NCBI GenBank assembly: GCA_965204345.1
Contig: OZ241981.1
Location: forward strand, 1,376,001-1,440,000
From: Nitrosopumilus sp.
GTDB taxonomy: Archaea > Thermoproteota > Nitrososphaeria > Nitrososphaerales > Nitrosopumilaceae
Length of the DNA stretch: 64,000 nucleotides
Direction of reading: 5' to 3'
Each line of letters starts with the position of its first letter. Within the stretch, counting starts at the first letter, position 1. The notes below the pieces were generated by a model. That model had not been told where the DNA came from, searched no databases, and worked only from the letters and a program-made list of their open reading frames with translations. Shown in pieces: positions 4,631 through 63,976 of this stretch. The translations under genes were made by a program, and so were the position numbers.

Positions 4631-6046
4631 CTAAATAAAATCAATCTTTGCAATTTCTTGGTGTATTGCCCTAATGGCCTTTGTAATGTTATCCTGTGTG
4701 TCTTCTACGACAATAATTATCCTTGATGTCTCCTCCTGTGCATCCATGTTCAAAATATTCAATCCTGATTCACCAATCTTTGCACTGGTCCTAGAGGCCA
4801 CCTGTTGAACCTTCCACATCTCGTCTCCAATTAACGTAATTACGCCCCGGTTAAACGCTATTGTTGCAAGCGAATCAAATGCCAAGAGATATTTTTCATT
4901 TCTTTTTACATAGTCTCCATCCAAAAATAATATTCTAGAAAACTCTATTCCGTCTTTTGCAAATGGTGATAAAATTATGAATTCGCTATAACGCTTGTCT
5001 CTTTCTAGGGATGTCAATAACTTCTGAACTGCACTTGTCTCAATCCTAAAAATGGCACAGTTCTCCTTGCCCGTCACTATCTTTATTGGATGCCCCTTTT
5101 GCTCGTCCAGATTTCGTTTAATTACGGTAATTTCTTCTGGGTTTTTCATATTGGTTATGGTGATTGGTATGTCGACGCCGTTTTCTACAATCTCTTTTAT
5201 CGCAATTGGGTCTAGGATCTTCATGCCGAACATACCTGCCAATCTGGCCTCATTGTATGACAGCTGGATAATCTCCCTTAATTCCGAATCTACAATTTTT
5301 GGATCAGCAGAGACGACAGCGCTATCCTTTTCAAAATCTATGCTTGTCTCATACTTTTTGTGAAACAGTATTCCCAGATCTGCCGCTGTTCTGTCTGAGC
5401 CTCCTCGTTCGTATGTTGTAGTTATGCCATCTACTGTTTTTCCAATAAATCCGCCAATGGTTACCACCTGATTTTTTTCAACCAGTTCTGCCGTTTTTTC
5501 TATCTTTTCCCTGGATTCTGATGTAAGAAAATTTGTAAACTCGATATTGTTGTCTGTAATGATTGGCCAGTTATCATATTTTACTGCCTCAGCACTGATG
5601 CCGCTGCTTCTCAGAATATGGGTCATGACATGTGACATTAGAATCTCTCCTGAAAATGCCAGAGCTTTTGATCGTACTTCGTTGGCAAATTCCCTGCTCT
5701 CAAAGGCCTCATCTAATGCCTGCTGCGCCTTTTCTAGATGAAAATCAACTGTCCTAATACAACTCTCCTTGTTTTTTTCATCAACCATATCTGTAATCTT
5801 CTGATAAGTTGATTTTACAGTATCCAAAGACGGTTTTATGCCATTTTCTGCATTTCTTCCCTGTTCTAGTATGACATCAGTCAGTGAACGTCTCTTTTGC
5901 TCGTAAATTGTTAATGGTGCCGAAAAAACTGCAATAACCTTTGATTTTTTCTCCAAATTTGCGATTCTTTGGATAATTTTTGGAATTGTTTGGCCATTTG
6001 GACCTATTGCACTTCCCCCAAATTTGGCAATTACCAGGCTAGTCAC
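4631..6046 (-). CDS. lysC: Aspartate kinase with C-terminal ACT domain
   Basis: VIAKFGGS, GGFIG, TYERGGSDRTAA, SADPKIV, LSYNEA, KILDP. Confidence 0.85.
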   Translation of the reverse strand: MTSLVIAKFGGSAIGPNGQTIPKIIQRIANLEKKSKVIAVFSAPLTIYEQKRRSLTDVILEQGRNAENGIKPSLDTVKSTYQKITDMVDEKNKESCIRTVDFHLEKAQQALDEAFESREFANEVRSKALAFSGEILMSHVMTHILRSSGISAEAVKYDNWPIITDNNIEFTNFLTSESREKIEKTAELVEKNQVVTIGGFIGKTVDGITTTYERGGSDRTAADLGILFHKKYETSIDFEKDSAVVSADPKIVDSELREIIQLSYNEARLAGMFGMKILDPIAIKEIVENGVDIPITITNMKNPEEITVIKRNLDEQKGHPIKIVTGKENCAIFRIETSAVQKLLTSLERDKRYSEFIILSPFAKDGIEFSRILFLDGDYVKRNEKYLLAFDSLATIAFNRGVITLIGDEMWKVQQVASRTSAKIGESGLNILNMDAQEETSRIIIVVEDTQDNITKAIRAIHQEIAKIDFI

Positions 6047-9279: not shown

Positions 9280-9385
9280 GTTGCAATGGCTTATGATCTA
9301 CCTACAAAGGATGAGCTAGAGGATCTGAAAACGGAAAATCCAATTCAATGTTGCAATGGCTTATGATCTACCTACAAAGGATGAG
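9280..9385 (-). CRISPR. CRISPR-like repeat-spacer-repeat unit: either an orphan mini-array or a duplication-flanked insertion
   Basis: Two identical 36-bp repeats (9280-9315, 9350-9385) around a 34-bp unique spacer; minus-strand repeat CTCATCCTTTGTAGGTAGATCATAAGCCATTGCAAC ends in ATTGCAAC; no cas genes in window. Confidence 0.45.
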
Positions 9386-9619
9386 AGTGGAGATGTTAAT
9401 GCCGGATATTACTATAACCAAGAATTTGATAAAATTCTAAAATATACTGAAGATAAGAGGATTTGTTATTCCATCAAAATATTCTACTGTAAGGTATTTC
9501 TTGAAAACTATTGGTTTTCATATAACCTGATCGTGAAAATTAATTATGAATAATATTATACCCAAGTCGTTATTATTAACAAATACTTGATCATAAGAGC
9601 TTTCAGGGAATGATGATAA

Positions 9620-11996: not shown

Positions 11997-12100
11997 GATC
12001 TTTATACTCGTTACAAAATTGATACATTGATACCAAGATTCATATTGATATTAACCAAGTAAGCAGGATCTTTATACTTGTTACAAATTGACACATTGAT
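11997..12100. repeat. Imperfect 35-bp direct repeat flanking a 35-bp unique insert
   Basis: gatctttatactcgttacaaaattgatacattgat (11997-12031) and gatctttatacttgttacaaattgacacattgat (12067-12100). Confidence 0.85.
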
Positions 12101-12422
12101 GGCAGGTGGCAGCATTCACTTTTACAAGCCTAGACAAACTATTGGAAGAAAGCAATTTCTTGAGAGGATAATTGACTGGCATGAGGAAGGAAATCATATA
12201 GTGAAAACTCTAACAGAATATGATCAAAACTACAGAAAAAAAATTTGTAGTAAATGTACAGAAGAACAACAAAAGAAACGTAATTGTCTAAAATTAGACA
12301 TGTACACATCAGAAGGAATTCAACTAAAACATTGCAGTCACATGAATAATGCCCGTGTAAGAAAACATAAGCAGCTAATTAGAAATCATATACATCTACA
12401 CCCTTCGCTTCAAATTATCTAG
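12078..12422 (+). CDS. Small basic Cys/His-containing hypothetical protein
   Basis: CSKC...C...HCSH, possible Zn site; start may be the ATG at 12099. Confidence 0.6.
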   Translation: MLQIDTLMAGGSIHFYKPRQTIGRKQFLERIIDWHEEGNHIVKTLTEYDQNYRKKICSKCTEEQQKKRNCLKLDMYTSEGIQLKHCSHMNNARVRKHKQLIRNHIHLHPSLQII

Positions 12423-18059: not shown

Positions 18060-19478
18060 ATGCCCCTTGCATCTAGAGCAATTTCACGTGATTCAGTCAA
18101 AACCTTCATCATGTATGTTCTAAGCAAAAGGGGAACAACAATATCAGTAATCGAGGAGAAAAAAAACAGGAAATATGATGGAGATGCATCACAAAAGAAA
18201 TATCAAGACAAGCATGTATGGATCACTAGAAATGATCTAATAGAATCTGTTGCAAAATTACTAAAGATCAATAAAAATTTGTGGGGTCCAAACCGAAACT
18301 CAAACAAGTTTCACAACATAGTCGATCAAGAGATTGGAAAACTGAGGCGCAAAAAGGAGATAGTAGACTGGAGCAGTACCAAACAGCTCGGAATATTCAG
18401 GCTCGAAGAAAATACTTCTGGTTTAGATGAATTACCAAATATGACTTTAGAAGATCCATCGCCTCAAAAAAATAATCATGATCCCTACACTGATACATCT
18501 GAGCAAAATCTCAAAAAAATATTCATATCCATAATTTCTGAATCCTCAAAATCCAACACCTATAAATTCACCCTTGCCAAGTCCCTCTTGGATTACTGTA
18601 AAGAAACTGATGAAAATAAGCCAACATACGAAATACCATACACATACTTTGCAAGTAAATTTTTAAAATATTATTGGTATCAGGAATACAAATTCAGAAT
18701 GAAACAAGATTATCTTAGTAAAGGAAAACCAAATGTCATCCAACAGATTAACAGTGTCTTTGGGGATAATCCTCCCGGAGATTTTAGCCTGCTTGAGAAA
18801 AACGACATAGATGCTGCAGAGCAAAAAATACTCAAAGCCGTGTTTGGTAGCATTCGGTCAAAAAAATCGATTGTTATTCCTGCATTTCAAAACATTTCAG
18901 TTGGACAAGGTGCAGAAGAGCGCAAGGTATTTTATGACTATGACAACAAAAGTAAAAAGCTATATCTTCGGAAAGAGGCATTTGATTTTTTCAAAAAAAA
19001 TAACAGCATACTATCAAAAGCAGTTCTTGCAGAGTGGGCAAAATTCCTAGAAAAGATCAATCATTCACTACCACGACTAGTTGCAAAGATCGATCAGTAC
19101 GATCTAAAGCGGGGTTCGCTAAATACGGTTCGAAACATGTATCTAAAACATACAGATCACTGCTTTTACTGTGCAAGTAAACTAGAAGATGATTACATTG
19201 AAGTAGATCATTTTATTCCATGGTCATACATATTTGATGATGCTGTATGGAACTTGGTCCTGTCCTGCAAAGACTGCAACCGCAAAAAAAGCAATTCACT
19301 TGCAGAGGAAGAGTTTCATCAGGCACTAATTAAAAGAAATTCAAGGCACTATGAAAAAATAAGAGAACTGCAAATCTCCCTGGATCAACTAAACACAGGC
19401 AAAGGCTGGAAACCGGTGATCAAAAATCACTATGTGACTTGCAAGGACTATGGATTTGCAATGATACGAATGCCTTAA
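18060..19478 (+). CDS. HNH endonuclease with an N-terminal Mrr_N-like winged helix; putative modification-dependent restriction enzyme
   Basis: KFHNIVDQEIGKLR..GIFRL, NTYKFTLAKSLL, CFYC..EVDHFIPW..NLVLSCKDCNRKK. Confidence 0.85.
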   Translation: MPLASRAISRDSVKTFIMYVLSKRGTTISVIEEKKNRKYDGDASQKKYQDKHVWITRNDLIESVAKLLKINKNLWGPNRNSNKFHNIVDQEIGKLRRKKEIVDWSSTKQLGIFRLEENTSGLDELPNMTLEDPSPQKNNHDPYTDTSEQNLKKIFISIISESSKSNTYKFTLAKSLLDYCKETDENKPTYEIPYTYFASKFLKYYWYQEYKFRMKQDYLSKGKPNVIQQINSVFGDNPPGDFSLLEKNDIDAAEQKILKAVFGSIRSKKSIVIPAFQNISVGQGAEERKVFYDYDNKSKKLYLRKEAFDFFKKNNSILSKAVLAEWAKFLEKINHSLPRLVAKIDQYDLKRGSLNTVRNMYLKHTDHCFYCASKLEDDYIEVDHFIPWSYIFDDAVWNLVLSCKDCNRKKSNSLAEEEFHQALIKRNSRHYEKIRELQISLDQLNTGKGWKPVIKNHYVTCKDYGFAMIRMP

Positions 19479-22022: not shown

Positions 22023-22055
22023 AAATTCTTCTGTATTGGCAGCGCGTACTGCTGT

Positions 22056-24749
22056 CTATGTTTTCACTTTGAATAAGGCAGCTTCACCTTCTCTAATGAC
22101 TAATTGCAATTGAGGATTATCCTCAAAGAGGGCTATTCGTTCAGAAGTACTTATGTGAAGAGCTGGAAATACTGGTAGAAGATGCTGTCGTGCCGCTTGT
22201 TGTCTGTTTTGGGGATCACCGCCAGTAATTAACACATATTCAATACCATACTTGTCCAATATTTCCATCATTTTCATGTCTCCGGGATGGTGTAATACAA
22301 GGTTAGCCTCATATGCTCTCTCTTTTAGAAATGTATCATCTGGCACAACATTGGTGCTTATTCTTTTCCACATTTCTCTGTTATTAGTTATATCAAATAT
22401 CTTTATTGATGAAAGCCACATTCCTTCAGTAGTTCTATCCTCAAGGATGGTTGTATTTGAATCAAGATTGTCATTCATCCAACCCATAACTTTTAATTCA
22501 TTGCTTGTAGGTAAATATCCTAGCAAACCATCTTTATACTCGTATGAAATATGAGTATCAAGACTTGGAATTAGTGCAATAAAAACCAACGAGCAAATCA
22601 CTATGGACAAGACTGATTTTGAACGTAATGAAATTTCGCGTTTGTTAAACCTAGTTGCAAGTTTATCAAAAATATCAACCCCTGCTAAAATTATTCCTAT
22701 TTGAGAGATGATAGCTCCTAGTAAAACAAGTCTGTCAGGATACATAAACCAGAAAAGATTCTCATAAATTACTTTATTTGATATTGTTCCAAACACTAGG
22801 GAAAACATTACAATCAAAAATAAACTAAACTCTCGATTGGATTTAAACAACCAAGTTGCAGAAAGAACCCCCCCTAGTAATAAAATAAAATAAGGAAAAT
22901 ATATAGAATCTATGTTGTATATGTCCATCTCCTCTAGAAAGATCCACCAAAAGTCGACCCTAGCACCATGTTCCTGAATCAATTCATCTGCAAAATAAAC
23001 CAGTGATGCGCCTGATGTTACTACCAAAATAATTAACGCCAATCGTAAAGAAGTAAGCATATAGTTTTTTATCTTAAATTTCCCGACTCGCAGTCCATTT
23101 GTTTTGGAGTTTATGGGGGATTTTAAGAGTATTAATTTAATAATTATAAACAAAACAAAGGGAACGATCATGATAGTATATGTGATAAATATTACAACTG
23201 ACAATAGCGAATAAATAATAAAATTAGAATTATTTTTATTATTAATAACTATGCTGATAAAAAGCAAAAGTATGCAAGTAAATGTAGCAAATACAAAAGT
23301 GCCCCCTTCTAATGGAGTAAGTAGTACATCATCAAATAGTATAAAATAACCTACTTCATTTCCTGGAATAAAAAACAATGCTCCAAATGCAATGCTTGCC
23401 AAGTAATACGATTTGGTTTTTTTGTATATTATTGAAAAACAGATGGGCGGCAAGAGTGCAACAATTGTTGCTGTGACGGCATATTGGGATATTGGCAGCA
23501 TGACGTTTGTAATCAAAGAAAAAAATGCAGTCAAAGCATGAAATCCCTGAGGATAAACTGTCATTCCATATGGCAAATCAAAAAATGGCCAATTATTGTT
23601 AAACACACTCGTATGATACATTATAAATTGCGAAGCGTGACCATGGTATTGCGGATCATGAATCGGCGGCCAGCTCATATTTTCTGCAATTATAAAAAAG
23701 TGAGTCAGTGACAGAATTATGAGTATGCCTGCAATCAGATTTGGAAGAACTTTTTCATTTTTAATTTCAGACAGAATTTTAGCTCTGTCTCTGAAAATCA
23801 AGTAAGAGCCAACCATCATAAACGAAAAGAAGGCTGTCAGAACAGTAGTCTGTGTAAAGTGAAGCATTGCCAGAAAAATCGCCAAAAGAATCAGCAATAC
23901 CAAGCCAAAGGCAGAGTACAGGGAAAAATTAATTACAAATCCAAAATTCAGCTTGTATCGGATAATTTTTAATAGAAAATACCCCATAATAACTGAAGAC
24001 GACAAATAAACAATCATGGATGTCAGTATCTCGTTTTTAAAATTCGACCTGTCTGAACCTATTTTGCTGTCAAATAATCCAGGCACTACCTCTGCATTTG
24101 CAATGTTCAGGCGCTGTGCTAGCTGTGCGTGATATTCTACATCAAATAATCCAGGCACTACCTCTGCATCTGTAATGAGCGTGGTCTGGGAATAAGAGTC
24201 CCCTCCGTTTACAAATGTAATTCTAAGAGACTTGACATTGCCAGGATCAAAGCCAGGTTTATTTTGAACGTAATTGGAGGGATCTACAATAACTTTTGCC
24301 CAAGTGCCATCTTCTAAACCAAACCACTGTGGCAAATTCCAAAAAGGACGCTGTATATCATTTGCATCAACCATGATCAAAAATGCATTAGCCCTCCATG
24401 CTTCAGGAGTACTTTTATTTATTCCAGCCACATTTTCAAGATTCATCCAAAATCGTAATCCTTGGCCCGTAGACAGATCCACAGGCTTGGAAAAACGGCA
24501 CTCAAGAACTGCTGTTTCTGTGGCATCACTGCTGGAAAAATAACTATAGGTAAAATCGCTATCATCATCATCATCATCACTATTCATATTCAGAGATTTG
24601 TCCAAAAAACTAGACTCTGAATCCCACGTACATTTATTCTCACTGTCAGACTCGAAAACATAAAAATCATGAAGATTTTCGGCAAATACAATTGATGGCA
24701 ACGCACATAATACCAACAAAACAAGTGCTATCCCACTAACAAGAAACAA
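22056..24749 (-). CDS. Multi-TM GT-C-like glycosyltransferase with N-terminal carbohydrate-binding-like domain, copy 1 (carries a 24-aa insertion)
   Basis: WPPxxDPQYH and YPQGFH loop motifs, more than 12 TM helices, C-terminal W..NLDSNTTIL-D / LDKYGIEYVL domain. Confidence 0.7.
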   Translation of the reverse strand: MFLVSGIALVLLVLCALPSIVFAENLHDFYVFESDSENKCTWDSESSFLDKSLNMNSDDDDDDSDFTYSYFSSSDATETAVLECRFSKPVDLSTGQGLRFWMNLENVAGINKSTPEAWRANAFLIMVDANDIQRPFWNLPQWFGLEDGTWAKVIVDPSNYVQNKPGFDPGNVKSLRITFVNGGDSYSQTTLITDAEVVPGLFDVEYHAQLAQRLNIANAEVVPGLFDSKIGSDRSNFKNEILTSMIVYLSSSVIMGYFLLKIIRYKLNFGFVINFSLYSAFGLVLLILLAIFLAMLHFTQTTVLTAFFSFMMVGSYLIFRDRAKILSEIKNEKVLPNLIAGILIILSLTHFFIIAENMSWPPIHDPQYHGHASQFIMYHTSVFNNNWPFFDLPYGMTVYPQGFHALTAFFSLITNVMLPISQYAVTATIVALLPPICFSIIYKKTKSYYLASIAFGALFFIPGNEVGYFILFDDVLLTPLEGGTFVFATFTCILLLFISIVINNKNNSNFIIYSLLSVVIFITYTIMIVPFVLFIIIKLILLKSPINSKTNGLRVGKFKIKNYMLTSLRLALIILVVTSGASLVYFADELIQEHGARVDFWWIFLEEMDIYNIDSIYFPYFILLLGGVLSATWLFKSNREFSLFLIVMFSLVFGTISNKVIYENLFWFMYPDRLVLLGAIISQIGIILAGVDIFDKLATRFNKREISLRSKSVLSIVICSLVFIALIPSLDTHISYEYKDGLLGYLPTSNELKVMGWMNDNLDSNTTILEDRTTEGMWLSSIKIFDITNNREMWKRISTNVVPDDTFLKERAYEANLVLHHPGDMKMMEILDKYGIEYVLITGGDPQNRQQAARQHLLPVFPALHISTSERIALFEDNPQLQLVIREGEAALFKVKT

Positions 24750-24799
24750 CAGATTCTAAAATTTTCTTGTTTATTTACTTTTTTGTTATGAGGTTCTGT

Positions 24800-25843
24800 T
24801 CTATTGTACGAAAATTATGTCCGCCTAAGCTCAGGCTTCAGACAAGGGATTATTACCGCATATACCGATCACGAATAATGAAGAGAACCAGACTAAAAGG
24901 AGATCAGACCAGATACATCATACGGCAGCATCAAAAGGGCACAGCTGCAGCAGTCTGGCCCAGACCATGCAGGTCAGCGCAAGACACGTCAGACGCATAT
25001 GGGCAGCCTACCGCAAGACCGGAAGAATACTCCCCCACAGAAAGGCAGAAAGACCCAGAAAGATACCATCACCTGAGGATGTACGTCGTGTTCTTAAGAC
25101 ATATGATGATATTCATGCAGTAGTGCGCACGACTCGCCACCTCAGAAAGTCATCTCATATAAGCTACCATACGGTATACCAAATAATGAAATCCAACGGA
25201 CTGGCCAGACTGTCTCCTGAAAAATCCAAGAAGAGGAAATACGTCAGATACGAGCGACTGTATTCCAATGCAATGTGGCATGTGGACTGGCCAAAATGAA
25301 GGATCCACGCCTGAAAGGACTGCAACTTGTGGCATATCTGGATGATGCATCAAGATGCATAACGGGATTCGAGATATTTGAGTGCCACAAGCCAGAACAC
25401 TGTAGCCGTTTTGCGCAAGGCTATCAAGTCATTTGGCACGCCAGGCCAGATACTTTCAGACAATGGAGCCTAGTTCACATCCCGGAACCGCGGTGTACCT
25501 GCCAAGGGATGGAAGCCCACCAACCCTGTTTGAGTCAGAAGCCCTGGAGAGGTGTATTGTCCTGATTGACTCGCGCTCTCACCACCACCACCCGCAGACC
25601 AACGGCAAGATTGAAAGATTCTTCAAGACACTTGAGGATGAGATTGTACACTTTAAGACGATGGAGGAGTTCATCGACTTTTACAATGAGGATAGGCTGC
25701 ATTTTTCTCTGGACATAGAGAACTGCCAGATGCTCCTGATGGCATTTAAGGCCAAAAAGGTTCCTGATGCGATCAGGAAAAACAACCAAAAATGGATGGA
25801 GGCAGATATGAATGACTAGCGGACATAATTATCATATAATACA
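24800..25843 (+). mobile_element. IS481-family element, variant A copy 1, frameshifted transposase
   Basis: 24-bp imperfect TIRs TCTATTGTACGAAAATTATGTCCG / TGTATTATATGATAATTATGTCCG; fragments WHVD, LDDASR, SDNG, PQTNGKIERF. Confidence 0.9.
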
Positions 25844-26058
25844 GCCTTCCTCCTCCTCCTCTTTATCTTTATCATCATCGTCTTTATCATGCCTACCTCT
25901 TGAGTCTCGCGTAAAAACTATCACCTTGTGTTTCTCTGCGAGTCTGCCATCTGCTTTTTTTCCAATAATGCAGTCTGCCCTTGTTCCGATTATTTTTCCA
26001 TCTCTGGGAGTCTGCCAGCTAATTCTTTTCCAATAAAGCTGGTGCTGCCCCCAATTAT
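25844..26058 (-). pseudogene. 5' fragment of the NAD-dependent epimerase gene at 58817-59851, trapped between two inverted IS copies
   Basis: Close match to about 59715-59840, plus a 68-bp duplication-insertion. Confidence 0.85.
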
Positions 26059-27102
26059 TGTATTATATGATAATTATGTCCGCTAGTCATTCATATCTGC
26101 CTCCATCCATTTTTGGTTGTTTTTCCTGATCGCATCAGGAACCTTTTTGGCCTTAAATGCCATCAGGAGCATCTGGCAGTTCTCTATGTCCAGAGAAAAA
26201 TGCAGCCTATCCTCATTGTAAAAGTCGATGAACTCCTCCATCGTCTTAAAGTGTACAATCTCATCCTCAAGTGTCTTGAAGAATCTTTCAATCTTGCCGT
26301 TGGTCTGCGGGTGGTGGTGGTGAGAGCGCGAGTCAATCAGGACAATACACCTCTCCAGGGCTTCTGACTCAAACAGGGTTGGTGGGCTTCCATCCCTTGG
26401 CAGGTACACCGCGGTTCCGGGATGTGAACTAGGCTCCATTGTCTGAAAGTATCTGGCCTGGCGTGCCAAATGACTTGATAGCCTTGCGCAAAACGGCTAC
26501 AGTGTTCTGGCTTGTGGCACTCAAATATCTCGAATCCCGTTATGCATCTTGATGCATCATCCAGATATGCCACAAGTTGCAGTCCTTTCAGGCGTGGATC
26601 CTTCATTTTGGCCAGTCCACATGCCACATTGCATTGGAATACAGTCGCTCGTATCTGACGTATTTCCTCTTCTTGGATTTTTCAGGAGACAGTCTGGCCA
26701 GTCCGTTGGATTTCATTATTTGGTATACCGTATGGTAGCTTATATGAGATGACTTTCTGAGGTGGCGAGTCGTGCGCACTACTGCATGAATATCATCATA
26801 TGTCTTAAGAACACGACGTACATCCTCAGGTGATGGTATCTTTCTGGGTCTTTCTGCCTTTCTGTGGGGGAGTATTCTTCCGGTCTTGCGGTAGGCTGCC
26901 CATATGCGTCTGACGTGTCTTGCGCTGACCTGCATGGTCTGGGCCAGACTGCTGCAGCTGTGCCCTTTTGATGCTGCCGTATGATGTATCTGGTCTGATC
27001 TCCTTTTAGTCTGGTTCTCTTCATTATTCGTGATCGGTATATGCGGTAATAATCCCTTGTCTGAAGCCTGAGCTTAGGCGGACATAATTTTCGTACAATA
27101 GA
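26059..27102 (-). mobile_element. IS481-family element, variant A copy 2 (mirror of copy 1)
   Basis: Identical ORF translations on the opposite strand; same TIRs; mirror coordinate sum 51902. Confidence 0.9.
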
Positions 27103-27152
27103 ACAGAACCTCATAACAAAAAAGTAAATAAACAAGAAAATTTTAGAATCTG

Positions 27153-29771
27153 TTGTTTCTTGTTAGTGGGATAGCACTTGTTTTGTTGGTATTATGTGCG
27201 TTGCCATCAATTGTATTTGCCGAAAATCTTCATGATTTTTATGTTTTCGAGTCTGACAGTGAGAATAAATGTACGTGGGATTCAGAGTCTAGTTTTTTGG
27301 ACAAATCTCTGAATATGAATAGTGATGATGATGATGATGATAGCGATTTTACCTATAGTTATTTTTCCAGCAGTGATGCCACAGAAACAGCAGTTCTTGA
27401 GTGCCGTTTTTCCAAGCCTGTGGATCTGTCTACGGGCCAAGGATTACGATTTTGGATGAATCTTGAAAATGTGGCTGGAATAAATAAAAGTACTCCTGAA
27501 GCATGGAGGGCTAATGCATTTTTGATCATGGTTGATGCAAATGATATACAGCGTCTTTTTTGGAATTTGCCACAGTGGTTTGGTTTAGAAGATGGCACTT
27601 GGGCAAAAGTTATTGTAGATCCCTCCAATTACGTTCAAAATAAACCTGGCTTTGATCCTGGCAATGTCAAGTCTCTTAGAATTATATTTGTAAACGGAGG
27701 GGACTCTTATTCCCAGACCACGCTCATTACAGATGCAGAGGTAGTGCCTGAATTATTTGACAGCAAAATAGGTTCAGACAGGTCGAATTTTAAAAACGAG
27801 ATACTGACATCCATGATTGTTTATTTGTCGTCTTCAGTTATTATGGGGTATTTTCTATTAAAAATTATCCGATACAAGCTGAATTTTGGATTTGTAATTA
27901 ATTTTTCCCTGTACTCTGCCTTTGGCTTGGTATTGCTGATTCTTTTGGCGATTTTTCTGGCAATGCTTCACTTTACACAGACTACTGTTCTGACAGCCTT
28001 CTTTTCGTTTATGATGGTTGGCTCTTACTTGATTTTCAGAGACAGAGCTAAAATTCTGTCTGAAATTAAAAATGAAAAAGTTCTTCCAAATCTGATTGCA
28101 GGCATACTCATAATTCTGTCACTGACTCACTTTTTTATAATTGCAGAAAATATGAGCTGGCCGCCTGTTTTTGATCCGCAATACCATGGTCACGCTTCGC
28201 AATTTATAATGTATCATACGAGTGTGTTTAACAATAATTGGCCATTTTTTGATTTGCCATATGGAATGACAGTTTATCCTCAGGGATTTCATGCTTTGAC
28301 TGCATTTTTTTCTTTGATTACAAACGTCATGCTGCCAATATCCCAATATGCCGTCACAGCAACAATTGTTGCACTCTTGCCGCCCATCTGTTTTTCAATA
28401 ATATACAAAAAAACCAAATCGTATTACTTGGCAAGCATTGCATTTGGAGCATTGTTTTTTATTCCAGGAAATGAAGTAGGTTATTTTGTAATTTCTCATG
28501 ATGTACTACTTACTCCATTATCTACAGGAACTTTTGTATTTGCTACATTTACTTGCATACTTTTGCTTTTTATCAGCATAGTTATTAATAATAAAAATAA
28601 TTCTAATTTTATTATTTATTCGCTATTGTCAGTTGTAATATTTATCACATATACTATCATGATCGTTCCCTTTGTTTTGTTTATAATTATTAAATTAATA
28701 CTCTTAAAATCCCCCATAAACTCCAAAACAAATGGACTGCGAGTCGGGAAATTTAAGATAAAAAACTATATGCTTATTTTACGATTGGCGTTAATTATTT
28801 TGGTAGTAACATCAGGCGCATCACTGGTTTATTTTGCAGATGAATTGCAGAAGATAAATAATATTCCGATCACCACTTACTGGCTATTATTTGAGAATAT
28901 GGACATATACAACATAGATTCTATATATTTTCCTTATTTTATTTTATTACTAGGGGGGGTTCTTTCTGCAACTTGGTTGTTTAAATCCAATCGAGAGTTT
29001 AGTTTATTTTTGATTGTAATGTTTTCCCTAGTGTTTGGAACAATATCAAATAAAGTAATTTATGAGAATCTTTTCTGGTTTATGTATCCTGACAGACTTG
29101 TTTTACTAGGAGCTATCATCTCTCAAATAGGAATAATTTTAGCAGGGGTTGATATTTTTGATAAACTTGCAACTAGGTTTAACAAACGCGAAATTTCATT
29201 ACGTTCAAAATCAGTCTTGTCCATAGCGATTTGCTCGTTGGTTTTTATTGCACTAACTCCAAGTCTTGATACTCATATTTCATACGAGTATGACGATGAT
29301 TTGCTAGGATATTTACCTACAAGCAATGAATTAAAAGTTATGGGTTGGATGAATGACAATCTTGATTCAAATACAACCATCCTTCAGGATAGAACTGGTG
29401 AAGGAATGTGGCTTTCATCAATAAAGATATTTGATATAACTAATAACAGAGAAATGTGGAGAAGAATACACAGTAGTGTTGTGTTAGATGATACATTTCT
29501 AAAAGAGAGAGCATATGAGGCTAACCTTGTATTACACCATCCCGGAGACATGAAAATGATGGAAATATTGGACAAGTATGGTATTGAATATGTGTTGATT
29601 ACTGGCGGTAATCCGAAAGACAGACAACGATCGGATGCGTACCCGCTTCTACCAGTATTTCCAGCTCTTCACATAAGTACTTCTGAACGAATAGCCCTCT
29701 TTGAGGATAATCCTCAATTGCAATTAGTCATTAGAGAAGGTGAAGCTGCCTTATTCAAAGTGAAAACATAG
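27153..29771 (+). CDS. GT-C-like membrane glycosyltransferase, copy 2
   Basis: Near-identical to copy 1 except for short divergent loop patches. Confidence 0.7.
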   Translation: MFLVSGIALVLLVLCALPSIVFAENLHDFYVFESDSENKCTWDSESSFLDKSLNMNSDDDDDDSDFTYSYFSSSDATETAVLECRFSKPVDLSTGQGLRFWMNLENVAGINKSTPEAWRANAFLIMVDANDIQRLFWNLPQWFGLEDGTWAKVIVDPSNYVQNKPGFDPGNVKSLRIIFVNGGDSYSQTTLITDAEVVPELFDSKIGSDRSNFKNEILTSMIVYLSSSVIMGYFLLKIIRYKLNFGFVINFSLYSAFGLVLLILLAIFLAMLHFTQTTVLTAFFSFMMVGSYLIFRDRAKILSEIKNEKVLPNLIAGILIILSLTHFFIIAENMSWPPVFDPQYHGHASQFIMYHTSVFNNNWPFFDLPYGMTVYPQGFHALTAFFSLITNVMLPISQYAVTATIVALLPPICFSIIYKKTKSYYLASIAFGALFFIPGNEVGYFVISHDVLLTPLSTGTFVFATFTCILLLFISIVINNKNNSNFIIYSLLSVVIFITYTIMIVPFVLFIIIKLILLKSPINSKTNGLRVGKFKIKNYMLILRLALIILVVTSGASLVYFADELQKINNIPITTYWLLFENMDIYNIDSIYFPYFILLLGGVLSATWLFKSNREFSLFLIVMFSLVFGTISNKVIYENLFWFMYPDRLVLLGAIISQIGIILAGVDIFDKLATRFNKREISLRSKSVLSIAICSLVFIALTPSLDTHISYEYDDDLLGYLPTSNELKVMGWMNDNLDSNTTILQDRTGEGMWLSSIKIFDITNNREMWRRIHSSVVLDDTFLKERAYEANLVLHHPGDMKMMEILDKYGIEYVLITGGNPKDRQRSDAYPLLPVFPALHISTSERIALFEDNPQLQLVIREGEAALFKVKT

Positions 29772-29869: not shown

Positions 29870-31171
29870 TGTATTATATGAAAATCATATCCGCTAGTCA
29901 TTCATGTCTGCCTCCATCCATTTTTGGTTGCTTTTTCTGATCGCATCAGGAACCTTTTTGGCCTTAAATGCCATCAGAGGCACCTGGCAGTTCTCTATGT
30001 CCAGAGAAAAATGCAGTCTATCCTTATTGTAAAAATCGATGAACTCCCCCATCGTCTTAAAGTGTACAATCTCATCCTCAAGTGTCCTGAAGAATCTCTC
30101 AATCTTGCCGTTGGCCTGCGGGTGGTGGTGGTGGTGGTGGTGGTGGTGGTGGTGGTGGTGGTGGTGGTGGTGGTGGTGGTGGTGGTGGTGGTGGTGGTGG
30201 TGGTGGTGGTGGTGGTGGTGGTGGTGGTGGTGGTGGTGGTGGTGGTGGTGGTGGTGGTGGTGGTGGTGGTGGTGGTGGTGGTGGTGGTGGTGGTGGTGGT
30301 GGTGGTGGTGGTGGTGGGAGCGTGAGTCAATCAGGGCAATACTCCTCTCCAGAGCTTCTTCCTCAAACATGGTGAGCCTCTATCCCTTGGCAGGTATACC
30401 GCGGTTTCGGGATGTGAACTGGGCGCCGTTGTCTGAAAGTATCTGGCCTGGCGTGCCAAATGACTTGATAGTCTTGCGCAAAACGGCTACAGTGTTCTGG
30501 CTTGTGGCACTATCAAATATCCCGAATCCCGTTATGCATCTTGATGCATCATCCAGATATGCCACAAGTTGCAATCCTTTTAGGCGTGGATCCTTCATTT
30601 TGGCCAGTCCATATCCCACATTGCATTGGAATACAGTCACTCGTATCTGACGTACTTTCTCTTCTTGGATTTTTCAGGAGACAGCTTAACTAGTCCATTG
30701 GATTTCATTATTTGGTAATGCTGTATGGTATCTTATATGAGATGACTTTCTGAGGTGGCGAGCTGTGTGCACTACTGCATGAATATCATCATATGTCTTA
30801 AGAACACGACGTTTAAGTGGTGACGGCATCGTCTAGGGCTTCGAGCCTGCATGAATATCATCATATGTCTTAAGAACACGACGTACATCCTCAGGTGATG
30901 GTATCTTTCTGGGTCTTTCTGCCTTTCTGTGGGGGAGTATTCTTCCGGTCTTGCGGTAGGCTGCCCATATGCGTCTGACGTGTCTTGCGCTGACCTGCAT
31001 GGTCTGGGCCAGAACAGATGCTGCACCTGTGCCCTTTTGATGCTGCCGTATGATGTATCTAATCTGAACTTCTTTTAGTCTGGTTCTCTTCATTATTCGT
31101 GATCTGTATATGCGGTAATAATCCCTTGCCTGAAGCCTGAGCTTAGGCGGACATAATTTTCGTACAATAGA
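29870..31171 (-). mobile_element. IS481-family element, variant B copy 1, pseudogenised, with (CAC)65 expansion
   Basis: TIRs at 29870 and 31171; transposase fragments; 72-bp duplication-insertion at 30775-30884. Confidence 0.9.
30121..30315. repeat. (GGT)65 microsatellite
   Basis: 195 bp of perfect trinucleotide repeat. Confidence 0.95.
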
Positions 31172-32296: not shown

Positions 32297-32317
32297 ATTT
32301 TTTTGGTGAGGTAAGAT

Positions 32318-32905: not shown

Positions 32906-32906
32906 A

Positions 32907-41573: not shown

Positions 41574-43733
41574 TTGTATTTCTCTAAATTTAAGATGCTT
41601 TCAGCCGGCTTTTTTCTACGAATACCTTCCTCGTCGTCATCCCCATCCTCACGTTTTCAAGGTGTCTGTAACGAATTTTTGCTAACATATTTCCTGTTTT
41701 CGGCATACGCATTACTTTACATGGTCCTGACTGCAACCATATTAAAGATAAAAATTTTTCCAACCATCGACAGAATAACATACGTGGATGCAGTAGTCAG
41801 ATGGACGATAACTGATTCGCTGCAATACGACATGCTGTTTGCATCCATAATTTTTGCAACGGCATTGCTCTTGTCGTTTAGAAAAAAGATATCAGTTTCT
41901 TTCTCAGTCATGCTACTGGTACCGGTCATCTCTGCGTCGTTTTTTGATTTTTTTCTCGAAGTTTCTCAAATGGTTTTCATCTTCTCAATGCCGACAGCAC
42001 TCACATTATTCTTGGTTGGTTATTACTTGTCTAACTACAGCCAGAAAAAGAAGAAGAAGAGCTCATCTAGCTTGGAGAAACCAGAAGAGGTGGCAACGGG
42101 TCACAGCTTCAGGCATGCGTTGTCTGTATTTTTTTCAGTTATTCTACTAGTTGAATTGGCAGCGGCACTCAGATGGGTTCTAACGCCTGTGGTTTTGGAA
42201 TTGCCCAAAAACCACTGGAGTTGGAACATAGTGTCTTTGGAAAACAGCGTGTTTTATGTTCTGGGCCTGATGGTTCCGTCCATCTTTTTGCTTTGCATCC
42301 TGTCTTTTTTGATAAAACCGTTTGTACAAAAAATATATTCAGGCATCAGCAGCGGCGGCGGCAACAACGGCAAAGACGGCAGCGGCACTACCACTGACAC
42401 TGCCATCACGCAGCAGCAGCAGCCTCAAAGACGACGACATTCAGATGATCTTGATGGCAAAAGCCCAACTGCAAACGGCCAAAAATCATTGAAAATAACA
42501 AATTTAAAAAAATACAGCCCCGTCATCTTGCTCTCAAAAATTGATTTTGATGGCAGTACGCGAAACGTTGCCTTGATGTTGTTGCTGGCAATGATATCGT
42601 CAGTTTTGATATCATTGTTTCCATACGCAGTATCCATAGTAGATGCGGACAAGTCATTTGGCACTGACGTCAAAAACTACACTGGCTGGCTTTGGCCGAT
42701 TAATTCGGCTGCCGGCCTTGAGAGCATGCTCCGTCTGGCATTCTTTGAAATAAACGAGGGTTCCAGACCCCTGACGCTGCTTTCAATATATTTTATCTCC
42801 CATATCTCCCAGTACGAGCAGGAGATTGTTTTAAAATATTTGCCAACAGTGCTGGGTCCGCTACTAGTAGCATCCACATATTTCTTTACGAGGGCTGCCT
42901 ATCCTCAGAACAGGAAGATTGCAGTGATCACATCGGTGATCACGTCAGTATCACCGCAGATAGTAATCGGGTTTTATGCGGCATTTTACGCAAATTGGTT
43001 TGCCTTGATTTTTATTTTAATCTCCTCAACGTTTCTAATCAAGTGCGTACGAAGGCAGGATCATCATCATCATCATCACGATTTTAGAAACATGACACTG
43101 TTTGGCGGCACCCTGCTGTTGGTGTTATTTTTTCATTCGTATGCATGGAGTTATTTTATGGCAACAGTTATGCTATACCTCATATGGTCACTGGCAATAA
43201 AAAAACGCAGAAAAGAGTCGGCAAAAATTTGTATCATTTTGGTGGCAGTGACATTATCCATACTTTCAGTGGATCTGTCCAGATCATATTTTGGAAACAC
43301 ATCAGATAGTTTTGAGAAAGACTTGCTGATAGCAGATTCGTCAATTAGTTATTACGAGTTTGTAAACAGATGGGCCAACTTTAATAACACTTTTTTTGTC
43401 TTTCTTGGGGGGTTTCTGACAAATTTTATGCTGCTAGGCCTGCTATTTGTATGGACCCTGCAAACAAAGCACTCGAGTCATTCAGACAGATTCTTCCTTT
43501 CGATGTTGCTGGTATCAGTGCTGCCAATCTTATTTGGGGATTTCAACGTACAGTCCAGAATATTTTACAACATTCCGTTCCACATTCCTGCAAGCGTTAT
43601 GTTGTACAAAATATACCAGAGCAACCAGACAAGGCCATTTGGCAAAATACTGGTCGTTGTGACAATATTGTTTCAGTTCAACTATGCATTAAGGGGGATG
43701 TCAAACATGAATTTTGCATCACCGATACAATGA
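41574..43733 (+). CDS. Multi-TM membrane protein, probable GT-C-like glycosyltransferase, copy A
   Basis: More than 15 TM helices; FGTDVKNY and GSRPLTL loop motifs; located in the glycan locus. Confidence 0.6.
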   Translation: MYFSKFKMLSAGFFLRIPSSSSSPSSRFQGVCNEFLLTYFLFSAYALLYMVLTATILKIKIFPTIDRITYVDAVVRWTITDSLQYDMLFASIIFATALLLSFRKKISVSFSVMLLVPVISASFFDFFLEVSQMVFIFSMPTALTLFLVGYYLSNYSQKKKKKSSSSLEKPEEVATGHSFRHALSVFFSVILLVELAAALRWVLTPVVLELPKNHWSWNIVSLENSVFYVLGLMVPSIFLLCILSFLIKPFVQKIYSGISSGGGNNGKDGSGTTTDTAITQQQQPQRRRHSDDLDGKSPTANGQKSLKITNLKKYSPVILLSKIDFDGSTRNVALMLLLAMISSVLISLFPYAVSIVDADKSFGTDVKNYTGWLWPINSAAGLESMLRLAFFEINEGSRPLTLLSIYFISHISQYEQEIVLKYLPTVLGPLLVASTYFFTRAAYPQNRKIAVITSVITSVSPQIVIGFYAAFYANWFALIFILISSTFLIKCVRRQDHHHHHHDFRNMTLFGGTLLLVLFFHSYAWSYFMATVMLYLIWSLAIKKRRKESAKICIILVAVTLSILSVDLSRSYFGNTSDSFEKDLLIADSSISYYEFVNRWANFNNTFFVFLGGFLTNFMLLGLLFVWTLQTKHSSHSDRFFLSMLLVSVLPILFGDFNVQSRIFYNIPFHIPASVMLYKIYQSNQTRPFGKILVVVTILFQFNYALRGMSNMNFASPIQ

Positions 43734-43931
43734 AAACCCCATGATGCAACCAGAATTATACCAGCCTCTATTTTGTCAAACATGAATTTTGCATCACCGA
43801 TACAATGAAAACGGCAGGACACGGGAAGAAGGCTAAAAAGACTTAAAAATGAAAAACAGGCTACGGTACTTGCTTGACAAAGTCTCAAATATCTGTCTGT
43901 TGTTGCAAAATCCTGACATCTGTGTAATGCC

Positions 43932-45194: not shown

Positions 45195-46172
45195 TCAAGA
45201 CAAGTCTGGGTTAAGAATCCTTTTCTTCTCAATGCTCTTGGTCTTGTCTTGTGGATTATTAAGATACCAAGCAATCAGCTCTTTTAATCCCTCTTCAAAC
45301 TTTATTTGGGGTTTCCAGCCAAACTCGTTTTTAGCTTTAGATATGTCCAACAAGCGTCTTGGTTGACCGTTAGGATGATTGACATCAAAGAGTATTTCCA
45401 AATCCAAATCCATGAGTTTCATTAGTATTTTTGTAAGTTCTAGTATTGTGATTTCATATCCCCCACCAATATTCACAGGGGATGGGTCATTGTAAGATTC
45501 TGAGGCCATTATAATGGCTTGTGCTGCATCAGTTATGTGAAGAAAATCTCGTGAAGCAGAACCGTCACCGAAAAGTGTGATGCTTGGATAATTGTTAATT
45601 TTTGCTTCATGCAGTTTCACAATCAATGCAGGAATTACATGGGACATTTCTGGTGAAAAATTATCTTTGATTCCATACAAATTACTCAATATTATATTAA
45701 TTGCGGTAAAATTGAACTGTGCGGCATATGCATCGGATTGAACAATCAGCATTTTTTTTGCCAGTCCATAGTGGGAATTTGTCTCCTCAGGATAGCCATC
45801 CCAAATATCTTTCTCTAAGGAAGGGAGATGAGTATATTTTGGATAGCTGCACACGGTTCCGATTGAAATGAATTTTTTAACATTTGCCTTTCGTGCTTCC
45901 TCCATCAAATGAGCTCCCATTATTAGGTTGTCATAGAAAACCGAGCCAGGATATTTGGCTGTAAAGCCAATTCCTCCAATAAGTCCGGCAGCATGAAAAA
46001 CAATATCAACGTCTTGTACAATCCTAGCACAGTTTGACTTTTCACGTAAATCGCATTCTTTGGATGTTGGAGTAATTATTTTGTTGGGTTTTTTTTCTTT
46101 TAAGAGAGAGACAATATTTGAACCTAAGAAGCCGTTGGCACCTGTAACTAAGACATTCAATTTATCCCACAT
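45195..46172 (-). CDS. fcl: GDP-L-fucose synthase-like epimerase/reductase
   Basis: GANGFLG, GGIG, GTVCSYPK, YGLAK, NLYG..DNF..SHVIPALI. Confidence 0.9.
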   Translation of the reverse strand: MWDKLNVLVTGANGFLGSNIVSLLKEKKPNKIITPTSKECDLREKSNCARIVQDVDIVFHAAGLIGGIGFTAKYPGSVFYDNLIMGAHLMEEARKANVKKFISIGTVCSYPKYTHLPSLEKDIWDGYPEETNSHYGLAKKMLIVQSDAYAAQFNFTAINIILSNLYGIKDNFSPEMSHVIPALIVKLHEAKINNYPSITLFGDGSASRDFLHITDAAQAIIMASESYNDPSPVNIGGGYEITILELTKILMKLMDLDLEILFDVNHPNGQPRRLLDISKAKNEFGWKPQIKFEEGLKELIAWYLNNPQDKTKSIEKKRILNPDLS

Positions 46173-51179: not shown

Positions 51180-56249
<5,070 letters not shown>

Positions 56250-61354: not shown

Positions 61355-63976
61355 TTGTTTCTTGTTAGTGGGATAGCACTTGTTTTGTTGGTATTATGTG
61401 CGTTGCCATCAATTGTATTTGCCGAAAATCTTCATGATTTTTATGTTTTCGAGTCTGACAGTGAGAATAAATGTACGTGGGATTCAGAGTCTAGTTTTTT
61501 GGACAAATCTCTGAATATGAATAGTGATGATGATGATGATGATAGCGATTTTACCTATAGTTATTTTTCCAGCAGTGATGCCACAGAAACAGCAGTTCTT
61601 GAGTGCCGTTTTTCCAAGCCTGTGGATCTGTCTACGGGCCAAGGATTACGATTTTGGATGAATCTTGAAAATGTGGCTGGAATAAATAAAAGTACTCCTG
61701 AAGCATGGAGGGCTAATGCATTTTTGATCATGGTTGATGCAAATGATATACAGCGTCTTTTTTGGAATTTGCCACAGTGGTTTGGTTTAGAAGATGGCAC
61801 TTGGGCAAAAGTTATTGTAGATCCCTCCAATTACGTTCAAAATAAACCTGGCTTTGATCCTGGCAATGTCAAGTCTCTTAGAATTACATTTGTAAACGGA
61901 GGGGACTCTTATTCCCAGACCACGCTCATTACAGATGCAGAGGTAGTGCCTGGATTATTTGACAGCAAAATAGGTTCAGACAGGTCGAATTTTAAAAACG
62001 AGATACTGACATCCATGATTGTTTATTTGTCGTCTTCAGTTATTATGGGGTATTTTCTATTAAAAATTATCCGATACAAGCTGAATTTTGGATTTGTAAT
62101 TAATTTTTCCCTGTACTCTGCCTTTGGCTTGGTATTGCTGATTCTTTTGGCGATTTTTCTGGCAATGCTTCACTTTACACAGACTACTGTTCTGACAGCC
62201 TTCTTTTCGTTTATGATGGTTGGCTCTTACTTGATTTTCAGAGACAGAGCTAAAATTCTGTCTGAAATTAAAAATGAAAAAGTTCTTCCAAATCTGATTG
62301 CAGGCATACTCATAATTCTGTCACTGATTCACTTTTTTATAATTGCAGAAAATATGAGCTGGCCGCCGATTCATGATCCGCAATACCATGGTCACGCTTC
62401 GCAATTTATAATGTATCATACGAGTGTGTTTAACAATAATTGGCCATTTTTTGATTTGCCATATGGAATGACAGTTTATCCTCAGGGATTTCATGCTTTG
62501 ACTGCATTTTTTTCTTTGATTACAAACGTCATGCTGCCAATATCCCAATATGCCGTCACAGTAACAATTGTTGCACTCTTGCCGCCCATCTGTTTTTCAA
62601 TAATATACAAAAAAACCAAATCGTATTACTTGGCAAGCATTGCATTTGGAGCATTGTTTTTTATTCCAGGAAATGAAGTAGGTTATTTTATACTATTTCA
62701 TGATGTACTACTTACTCCATTAGAAGGGGGCACTTTTGTATTTGCTACATTTACTTGCATACTTTTGCTTTTTATCAGCATAGTTATTAATAATAAAAAT
62801 AATTCTAATTTTATTATTTATTCGCTATTGTCAGTTGTAATATTTATCACATATGCTGTCATGATCGTTCCCTTTGTTTTGTTTATAATTATTAAATTAA
62901 TACTCTTAAAATCCCCCATAAACTCCAAAACAAATGGACTGCGAGTCGGGAAATTTAAGATAAAAAACTATATGCTTACTTCTTTACGATTGGCGATAAT
63001 TATTTTATTAGTAACATTAGGTGCACCACTGGTTTATTTTGCAGATGAATTGATTCAGGAACATGGTGCTAGGGTCGACTTTTGGTGGATCCTTCTAGAG
63101 GATATGGACATATACAACATAGATTCTATATATTTTCCTTATTTTGTTTTATTACTAGGGGGGGTTCTTTCTGCAATTTGGTTGTTTAAATCCAATCGAG
63201 AGTTTAGTTTATTTTTGATTGTAATGTTTTCCCTAGTGTTTGGAGCAATATCAAATAAAGTAATTTATGAGAATCTTTTCTGGTTTATGTATCCTGTCAG
63301 ACTTGTTTTACTAGGAGCTATCATCTCTCAAATAGGAATAATTTTAGCAGGGGTTGATATTTTTGATAAACTTGTAACTAGGTTTAACAAACGCAAAATT
63401 TCATTACGTTCAAAATCAGTCTTCTCCATAGCGATTTGCTCGTTGGTTTTTATTGCACTAATTCCAAGTCTTGATACTCATATTTCATACGAGTATAAAG
63501 ATAATTTGCTAGGATATTTACCTACAAGCAATGAATTAAAAGTGATGGGTTGGATGAATGACAATCTTGATTCAAATACAACCATCCTTGAGGATAGAAC
63601 TAGTGAAGGAATGTGGCTTTCATCAATAAAGATATTTGATATAACTAATAACAGAGAAATGTGGAGAAAAATAAGCGCCAATGTTGTGCCAGATGATACA
63701 TTTCTAAAAGAGAGAGCATATGAGGCTAACCTTGTATTACACCATCCCGGAGACATGAAAATGATGGAAATATTGGACAAGTATGGTATTGAATATGTGT
63801 TAATTACTGGCGGTGATCCCCAAAACAGACAACAAGCGGCACGACAGCATCTTCTACCAGTATTTCCAGCTCTTCACATAAGTACTTCTGAACGAATAGC
63901 CCTCTTTGAGGATAATCCTCAATTGCAATTAGTCATTAGAGAAGGTGAAGCTGCCTTATTCAAAGTGAAAACATAG
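61355..63976 (+). CDS. GT-C-like membrane glycosyltransferase, copy 3
   Basis: Near-identical to copies 1 and 2. Confidence 0.7.
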   Translation: MFLVSGIALVLLVLCALPSIVFAENLHDFYVFESDSENKCTWDSESSFLDKSLNMNSDDDDDDSDFTYSYFSSSDATETAVLECRFSKPVDLSTGQGLRFWMNLENVAGINKSTPEAWRANAFLIMVDANDIQRLFWNLPQWFGLEDGTWAKVIVDPSNYVQNKPGFDPGNVKSLRITFVNGGDSYSQTTLITDAEVVPGLFDSKIGSDRSNFKNEILTSMIVYLSSSVIMGYFLLKIIRYKLNFGFVINFSLYSAFGLVLLILLAIFLAMLHFTQTTVLTAFFSFMMVGSYLIFRDRAKILSEIKNEKVLPNLIAGILIILSLIHFFIIAENMSWPPIHDPQYHGHASQFIMYHTSVFNNNWPFFDLPYGMTVYPQGFHALTAFFSLITNVMLPISQYAVTVTIVALLPPICFSIIYKKTKSYYLASIAFGALFFIPGNEVGYFILFHDVLLTPLEGGTFVFATFTCILLLFISIVINNKNNSNFIIYSLLSVVIFITYAVMIVPFVLFIIIKLILLKSPINSKTNGLRVGKFKIKNYMLTSLRLAIIILLVTLGAPLVYFADELIQEHGARVDFWWILLEDMDIYNIDSIYFPYFVLLLGGVLSAIWLFKSNREFSLFLIVMFSLVFGAISNKVIYENLFWFMYPVRLVLLGAIISQIGIILAGVDIFDKLVTRFNKRKISLRSKSVFSIAICSLVFIALIPSLDTHISYEYKDNLLGYLPTSNELKVMGWMNDNLDSNTTILEDRTSEGMWLSSIKIFDITNNREMWRKISANVVPDDTFLKERAYEANLVLHHPGDMKMMEILDKYGIEYVLITGGDPQNRQQAARQHLLPVFPALHISTSERIALFEDNPQLQLVIREGEAALFKVKT

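Follow-up and report, generated by a model that had tools for sequence, protein, structure and literature searches.

Off-target ("neo-CRISPR") integration of spacers by Cas1-Cas2, the integrase of CRISPR adaptation, was reportedly described by Nivala, Shipman and Church in 2018, and isolated or orphan CRISPR mini-arrays are said by Shmakov et al. (2020) to be thought to come from such off-target acquisition. Cas1-Cas2 integration elsewhere in the genome has been reported for E. coli (as cited in the accessible parts of 10.1101/148544 and PMC7054753), and off-target acquisition is named as one proposed origin of isolated arrays in the accessible text of PMC13142298. For the genus Nitrosopumilus, the accessible part of a further report describes a family 1 casposase of Nitrosopumilus koreensis, a Cas1-like enzyme, with a target duplication of 13 bp (PMC8464041). 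Here, we describe a window of 64,000 nucleotides from Nitrosopumilus sp. (GenBank assembly GCA_965204345.1, contig OZ241981.1, positions 1,376,001 to 1,440,000; coordinates below count from the first letter of the window), in which a direct repeat of 36 nt around an unrelated insert of 36 nt at 24070..24177 lengthens an intact gene in frame by 24 codons. This scar is best filed as the in-frame member of a recurrent and apparently lineage-restricted class of insertions, which would represent a variant of off-target CRISPR spacer integration that occurs naturally in archaea.

With neo-CRISPR integration, as far as the accessible sources describe it, these scars share a spacer-sized fragment at a non-CRISPR site, a repeat-length duplication of the target and inserts that differ from site to site, but those events were obtained in E. 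coli over-producing the integrase, whereas the ones reported here lie in natural genomes of an ammonia-oxidizing archaeon. They furthermore comprise several fixed events, one of which adds 24 residues to an intact gene, and, with no cas genes or arrays seen in the window, their agent is a presumed one. Like orphan mini-arrays, each scar consists of one repeat-spacer-repeat unit remote from any cas locus, yet its "repeats" are ordinary host sequence that differs at every site and has demonstrable empty alleles; no CRISPR-repeat family matches them, and nothing suggests array function. Casposon integration shares the host genus, a Cas1-related integrase chemistry and a target duplication set by a ruler, but the casposase uses ends derived from terminal inverted repeats and duplicates 13 bp, while the scars described here show duplications of 33 to 39 nt and inserts free of inverted repeats. 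A literature search, with most subscription papers outside its reach, returned nothing that describes in-gene events of this kind or, in Thaumarchaeota, this class of scars.

The affected gene, which we call copy 1, occupies 22056..24749 on the minus strand and forms an open frame of 897 aa. Read in coding sense, the upstream copy of the direct repeat (24142..24177, minus strand, 36 nt) has the same sequence as the empty site of gene copy 3, the unique insert follows (24106..24141, minus strand, 36 nt with 50% G+C and 12 codons without a stop), and the downstream repeat copy (24070..24105, minus strand, 36 nt) carries two transitions adjoining the insert that change Thr-Asp to Ala-Asn. The repeat copies are identical at 34 of 36 positions and share an exact core of 28 nt; they mismatch at 24098/24170 and 24101/24173. 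One repeat copy plus the insert make up the surplus of copy 1, i.e., 72 in-frame bases or 24 codons. We indeed confirmed the central points of a preliminary description of this DNA, which had reported a 36-bp duplication with two mismatches around a 36-bp insert and an in-frame addition of 24 aa to an intact gene; translation of the minus strand gives the junction peptide that it had quoted, and its term "spacer-like" holds for the architecture alone (36 + 36 + 36 nt).

The same description had placed empty alleles in two paralogs, and both were found there: gene copy 2 (27153..29771, 872 aa) and gene copy 3 (61355..63976, 873 aa) each carry a single repeat copy and no insert, at 27725..27760 (plus strand) and 61927..61962 (plus strand), respectively. 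Aligning the DNA of all three copies, we found precisely those 72 nt missing from copies 2 and 3 and the junction otherwise unchanged; the protein alignment of the three copies shows a clean gap of 24 residues. Four occurrences of the 28-nt repeat core are present in the window, two of them in copy 1 and one each in copies 2 and 3, against an expectation of zero from 100 shuffles of the sequence. The 36-nt insert has no other match in the window with up to three mismatches allowed, and the longest word that it shares with the rest of the 64 kb on either strand is 10 nt. Simple tandem duplication was rejected because only 36 of the 72 added nucleotides are copied, the other 36 matching nothing else in the window.

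The preliminary description had further spoken of a process, and this architecture is indeed found again elsewhere, at four more independent sites of the window and three sites of two related genomes. A preceding scan for short-range direct repeats had shown several pairs of 36 to 39 nt spaced 68 to 75 nt apart. Scanning the window at all offsets from 31 to 200 (27 or more matches out of 30, with one (GGT)n run set aside) returned matches only at offsets of 70 (site 9277), 72 (sites 24067 and 30772), 75 (site 43696 and its mirror at 48888) and 93 (site 39690), and at lower thresholds two more sites appeared, 11997, which is older, and 25933, which is doubtful. None of 40 randomized windows contained any direct repeat at 25 or more matches out of 30 over the same offsets, and a chance origin of the repeats is excluded.

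Five independent scars with a duplication of 36 to 39 nt, an unrelated insert of 33 to 36 nt and a period of 70 to 75 nt emerge from these scans. The scar at 24070 (duplication 36 nt, insert 36 nt, period 72) is the only one of them that lies within a gene body and in frame. The scar at 30775..30884 (exact duplication of 38 nt, insert of 34 nt, period 72) lies in a minus-strand gene for an integrase-type transposase, now degraded, into which it puts a stop codon; it recurs at 34373-34482 and 37971-38080 through a tandem triplication of 3598 bp, and its site is clean and empty in three paralogous element copies (26708-26900, 25002-25194 and 46425-46617). At 43699..43812, an exact duplication of 39 nt with an insert of 36 nt (period 75) spans the stop codon of the open reading frame (ORF) 41574..43733, leaving its protein unchanged, and a mirror copy is found at 48895-49008 within an inverted repeat of 4104 nt. 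Two further scars are intergenic, one at 9280..9385 (exact duplication of 36 nt, insert of 34 nt, period 70), where the duplication takes in the start of the 65-aa ORF 9356..9553 and the gene stays whole, and an older one at 11997..12102 (duplication of ca. 36 nt with three mismatches and a 1-nt indel, insert of ca. 33 nt, period 70).

Other repeats were left out of the class. We did not count 25933-26039 (period 68, repeat of 39 nt with 85% identity), as its middle resembles the repeat and its flank; this site probably arose by tandem duplication, since diverged, within an N-terminal fragment of an epimerase paralog (compare 59690-59839). The exact 25-nt repeat 39695/39788 (39695-39812, period 93) and a weak repeat of ca. 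30 nt at 45090-45176 (period 54; mirror at 47531) were likewise set aside. We also note a 30-nt tandem duplication at 56237-56296 with a geometry unlike that of the scars.

An aspartokinase gene at 4631..6046 of the window places the organism in Nitrosopumilus (best identity 86%), and through this gene we assembled a comparison set of 79 loci with 1.255 Mb in total. The same scan over these loci returned mostly ordinary tandem repeats together with three isolated cases of the scar type, two in locus L071 on chromosome OZ244579.1 (721-828 with a duplication of 36 nt and an insert of 36 nt; 3331-3436 with 33 nt and 40 nt) and one in locus L063 on chromosome OZ253567.1 (14473-14592 with 37 nt and 46 nt). 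For the first of them, the site is empty, i.e., single-copy, in 17 other loci or species, with the two halves of the alignment overlapping by the length of the duplication; the insertion gives a small helix-turn-helix gene a stop in its 5' end, and a TTG restart in the downstream copy is possible for this gene. The other 77 loci (1.21 Mb) contained no clean scar; three candidates among them were discounted, L050 as an artefact of a run of N, L043 as a diverged tandem repeat and L075 (14963) for a repeat of just 23 nt. In a quick single-gene tree of 78 rows, from which two of the 79 loci were dropped for matches shorter than 440 residues, the window, L071 and L063 all fall into one clade of 18 rows with a support of 98 in the Shimodaira-Hasegawa-like approximate likelihood ratio test (SH-aLRT). 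Three random rows would fall into that clade in about 1% of cases by simple arithmetic, while a label-shuffling test was not significant; judged from the tree and the empty loci, the scars are apparently lineage-restricted.

The inserts of the scars show no similarity among themselves, to the rest of the window or to the 79 related loci, and they have no common termini. Such mutually different inserts would be in line with spacers and unlike copies of a mobile element, and a miniature transposable element (MITE) or the remnant of an insertion sequence (IS) was rejected on the same grounds, since its copies should share sequence and termini. The periods of four of the eight scars are divisible by three (72, 72, 72 and 75), with eight sites being too few for a test of enrichment in codon multiples.

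A fixed-length duplication around a short foreign fragment is the signature of staggered-nick integration followed by gap repair, and we infer such a cut, as well as the identity of the enzyme behind it, from what is directly seen, i.e., the architecture, the gain of sequence, the recurrence within narrow sizes and the position in the protein. In the proposed mechanism, a DNA fragment of ca. 36 nt would be joined to two nicks that lie on opposite strands ca. 36 nt apart, and filling of both single-stranded gaps would duplicate the 36-nt target on each side of the fragment. The integrase acting here would be Cas1-Cas2, the CRISPR adaptation integrase, at a non-CRISPR site. We know of no other enzyme family that produces a repeat-sized duplication around a spacer-sized insert, and for this reason Cas1-Cas2 seems the most likely agent. 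The stagger of ca. 36 nt and the insert of ca. 35 nt match the repeat and spacer dimensions of CRISPR arrays, and repeats of 36 to 37 nt are often found in arrays that type III-associated adaptation modules serve. The duplications are repeat-like in length at all eight sites (36, 36, 38, 39 and ca. 36 nt in the window; 36, 33 and 37 nt in L071 and L063), and the inserts are spacer-sized (34, 36, 34, 36 and ca. 33 nt in the window; 36, 40 and 46 nt in L071 and L063). Once made, the insertion at 24070 would have been retained because its 72 nt amount to 24 codons and keep the frame, the fragment holds no in-frame stop and the site lies in a poorly conserved linker. An integrase-type origin of the scars, whether through Cas1-Cas2 or through some other integrase, is on this evidence probable, and that they specifically reflect off-target integration of spacer-sized DNA by Cas1-Cas2 is a proposition to which we give an even chance. 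Type I-B CRISPR-Cas in Thaumarchaeota and Cas1 in a Nitrosopumilus strain are on record, according to the accessible text of PMC6563490.

Several observations weigh against Cas1-Cas2 as the agent. The spread in size, with duplications of 33 to 39 nt and inserts of 33 to 46 nt, is wider than a strict ruler would give, and the two mismatches between the repeat copies at 24070 are unexpected for a gap-fill duplication and need later mutation or gene conversion of the upstream copy. Donor searches, including the database comparison of the insert that the preliminary description had suggested, gave only matches with E values of at least 1 in phage records (inserts of four scar sites), a best E value of 3 in plasmid records (24070 insert only) and no donor for any insert in the window and the 79 related Nitrosopumilus loci (1.26 Mb). 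The window contains no CRISPR array, no match to a CRISPR-repeat family by Rfam at either gathering or permissive thresholds, and no cas genes by Pfam among 32 window proteins (from ORFs of at least 150 aa, a limit that a Cas2-sized gene would escape). Several duplication ends look alike by eye, yet a de novo search for a common motif at the duplication ends of the eight sites was not significant (P about 0.8 to 0.9 versus random sites).

Part of this evidence would also fit with an agent that produces the same scar geometry without being related to CRISPR, such as an undescribed integrase, transposase or repair pathway that nicks ca. 36 nt apart and captures short DNA. The architecture, the recurrence and the lineage restriction show just a size-measuring process, no link of the scars to cas genes is seen within the window, and sizes of 33 to 39 nt and 33 to 46 nt are loose for the Cas1-Cas2 ruler. 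To our knowledge, many marine Nitrosopumilus moreover have no CRISPR-Cas at all. Conversely, no known non-CRISPR enzyme yields a target duplication of this length, and the inserts have neither terminal inverted repeats nor common ends. The casposase of Nitrosopumilus koreensis, in the accessible account of it, duplicates just 13 bp (PMC8464041), and casposon or casposase integration itself was rejected for the same discrepancy, as it should leave a duplication of 13 to 15 bp and terminal inverted repeats where we found 33 to 39 nt and no shared or inverted termini. We therefore regard an agent from outside the CRISPR world as possible, though doubtful.

An error of replication or repair seems improbable to us. 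In this scenario, a polymerase would switch templates, copy ca. 36 nt and return 36 nt behind its point of departure, leaving a duplication around templated filler. Template switching can yield a duplication around filler DNA, and this part of the genome has undergone much rearrangement, as seen in its large perfect duplications, both inverted and tandem, and in the mosaic pattern of conversion between the three gene copies. Nonetheless, nothing beyond the shared 10-nt word could have served as template for the 24070 insert within the 64 kb on either strand, and the other inserts in the window likewise have no template there. Slippage also gives no reason for the like sizes at eight unrelated sites in three genomes, nor for the lack of any clean scar in 1.21 Mb of relatives.

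Whether the 24 residues were gained by copy 1 or lost from its paralogs can be judged from related proteins. A word-indexed search of a large protein collection returned only four related clusters at E ≤ 1e-5, and a protein-based locus search of a genome contig collection found no relative. The paralog P0003 (896 aa, 94% identical to copy 1) keeps the same 24 aa in an open frame, while P0004, P0005 and the window's own P0006 lack the segment, as do five of seven family members overall. Out of the 100 relatives at E ≤ 1e-3 in an exhaustive HMMER search, six distant homologs were picked for their N-terminal domain and aligned (P0007, P0008, P0015, P0017, P0009 and P0031; 20 to 28% identity); the segment is missing in all six, and none of their linkers exceeds those of the empty alleles in length. 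The preliminary description had favored insertion over deletion and had named outgroups carrying the 24 aa as the observation that would speak otherwise; none of the six does. Because these six outgroup homologs and the two window paralogs are empty, the 24 residues are a gain within the paralog family and not ancestral. This gain would be older than the split of P0001 and P0003, or the segment may have been moved between them by gene conversion.

An ancestral segment that copies 2 and 3 lost by recombination between the 36-nt repeats is, by comparison, very unlikely. Deletion between direct repeats would leave exactly the empty site that we observe, and both P0001 and P0003, which differ at 6% of their residues, carry the segment; spread of the filled allele by segmental duplication or gene conversion is the more likely explanation for the latter. 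Besides the empty outgroups and family members, it speaks against this scenario that a near-perfect 36-nt repeat around unrelated DNA itself requires a duplication, so that the insertion would merely be pushed back in time.

Gene conversion among the three window copies is evident from their differences, which amount to 1 to 2 positions over the 580 nt before the insert and 28 to 95 positions (1.4 to 4.7%, in patches) over the 2011 nt after it. No sharp change in divergence occurs at the insert itself, and a recombination breakpoint at this position was rejected; a near-perfect inverted repeat of 1702 nt stops at 24142 only because the insert interrupts it. The residues at both repeat mismatches are also present in P0003 (which reads "IAN" there), and because they are common to both proteins, the mismatches would be old or date from the event itself and not be recent noise. 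Conversion from empty paralogs could have overwritten the upstream repeat copy, with the bases adjoining the insert being convertible only at the price of losing the insert, which may explain the two mismatches. We note that copies 1 and 2, each with ca. 1 kb of upstream transposase remnant, form an inverted duplication (22053-25843 / 26059-29771) around a center of 215 nt. Its arms show no differences over 1306 nt upstream of the genes and 3.9% in the 3' halves of the genes, a pattern that indicates recent gene conversion or partial re-duplication.

That the insertion is an artefact of assembly in a repeat-rich region is hardly credible, given that the insert is unique sequence and neither a collapsed nor an expanded repeat, that the independent database protein P0003 carries it, and that analogous scars are copied faithfully within larger duplications and present in other assemblies.

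The product of copy 1 matches Pfam DUF6541 (PF20176; E = 9.9e-15, about residues 260 to 896), as do the products of all three copies (52.6 to 58.4 bits against a gathering cut-off of 29, covering profile positions 32/33-645 of 646), and NCBIfam gave no match for it. An AlphaFold model built from an alignment of 48 family members (mean predicted local distance difference test score, pLDDT, of 81.7; predicted template modelling score, pTM, of 0.82) shows an N-terminal hydrophobic helix at residues 2-21, a beta-sandwich at 40-198 and a many-helix membrane domain from 234. We thereby found good agreement with the earlier placement of the insert in the linker between the outer domain and the membrane domain, as residues 195-227 sit between the sandwich and the first long membrane helix (234-262). 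The inserted residues are modelled as a short helix at 204-213, and pLDDT falls below 50 for residues 215-231. Foldseek searches against the PDB matched the membrane part to the GT-C glycosyltransferases STT3, PglB, AglB, AftA, DPY19, ALG12 and ArnT (E from 1.9e-7 to 2.5e-3, probability 1.00, TM-scores of 0.3 to 0.5, 9 to 14% identity) and the N-terminal domain to family 11 and 30 carbohydrate-binding modules (CBM11/CBM30).

Copy 1 is therefore predicted to encode a membrane glycosyltransferase of the GT-C fold with a CBM-like N-terminal domain, which the leading hydrophobic helix suggests to face outward. With GT-C enzymes such as STT3/PglB/AglB, AftA, DPY19 and ArnT it shares the predicted fold of residues ca. 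234-897 and an aspartate, D365, which lies in the first loop after the early helices and is invariant in the 48 aligned family members. It differs from them in that the TM-scores are modest and the identity is low (9 to 14%), with Pfam knowing the family solely as DUF6541, and in the CBM11/CBM30-like N-terminal domain, an addition found in just part of the family.

The genes around the three copies encode sugar-nucleotide dehydratases, epimerases, GT1/GT4 glycosyltransferases, sulfotransferases, a flippase-like protein and a 1689-aa protein with CBM11 repeats, and the neighborhood is a surface-glycan island. The last of these proteins is encoded by ORF 51180..56249 (minus strand) with five CBM11 domains, within which a unit of 495 bp is repeated 4.8 times at 99 to 100% identity (52303-54659). 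The tandem triplication that multiplies the 30775 scar extends from about 30292 to 41000 as three units of 3598 bp with 100% identity, each comprising GHMP-kinase, SIS-domain and HAD-phosphatase genes (a sugar-phosphate pathway cassette) and the transposase remnant. A perfect (GGT)n microsatellite sits in this degraded integrase-type transposase gene and is longest in the first copy of the triplication, with ca. 66 units at 30121-30317 and ca. 9 units at 33890-33915 and 37488-37513. The perfect inverted repeat of 4104 nt that holds the 43699 scar and its mirror (41350-45453 / 47254-51357) surrounds 1800 nt with an epimerase gene (45195..46172), and each arm contains a 719-aa ORF without Pfam match and a gene for GDP-mannose 4,6-dehydratase.

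Both intergenic scars, those at 9280 and 11997, belong to a stretch of ORFs (7187-13415) that adjoins a tRNA-Val gene (7187-7263) and gives no housekeeping matches; weak matches to a WING-49 domain, the C-terminal part of DarG and an ORF80-type DNA-binding protein are found there, and its location and content suggest an integrated mobile element. Defense-type genes also occur near the glycan island, namely one at 3-1475 for the C-terminal specificity domain of a Type ISP restriction-modification enzyme, truncated where the window begins, and one at 18060-19478 for a protein of 472 aa with an HNH endonuclease domain.

Our tentative view of these genomes, which we hold with somewhat less than even confidence, is that in one Nitrosopumilus clade a size-measuring integrase pastes spacer-sized DNA into ordinary chromosomal sites, so often that roughly one scar has become fixed for each 10 kb of variable genome, and that this integrase is most likely the CRISPR adaptation complex or else an undescribed enzyme. 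So far, off-target integration by the adaptation machinery is known from laboratory over-expression and has been proposed, circumstantially, as a way in which orphan arrays originate; natural events that are fixed and have clear empty alleles would show adaptation chemistry shaping genomes outside immunity. The target and product sequences of eight sites are known, and the integrase of these genomes is therefore directly testable on them. Were adaptation genes to be absent, the scars would point to an unknown enzyme with a ruler of ca. 36 nt, which would be more surprising still. The strongest case is the in-frame lengthening of an intact surface-glycan enzyme that survived duplication and gene conversion, and the proposal of the preliminary description that the process is able to create new protein sequence is borne out by this gain of 24 aa in an open frame, which is also kept in P0003. 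If Cas1-Cas2 is indeed the agent, CRISPR-type integration would be a natural mutagen that writes new peptide segments into working genes, as with the 24 aa here, that also breaks others, here a transposase gene and, at its 5' end, a regulator gene, and whose scars would be raw repeat-spacer-repeat units for the growth of new arrays.

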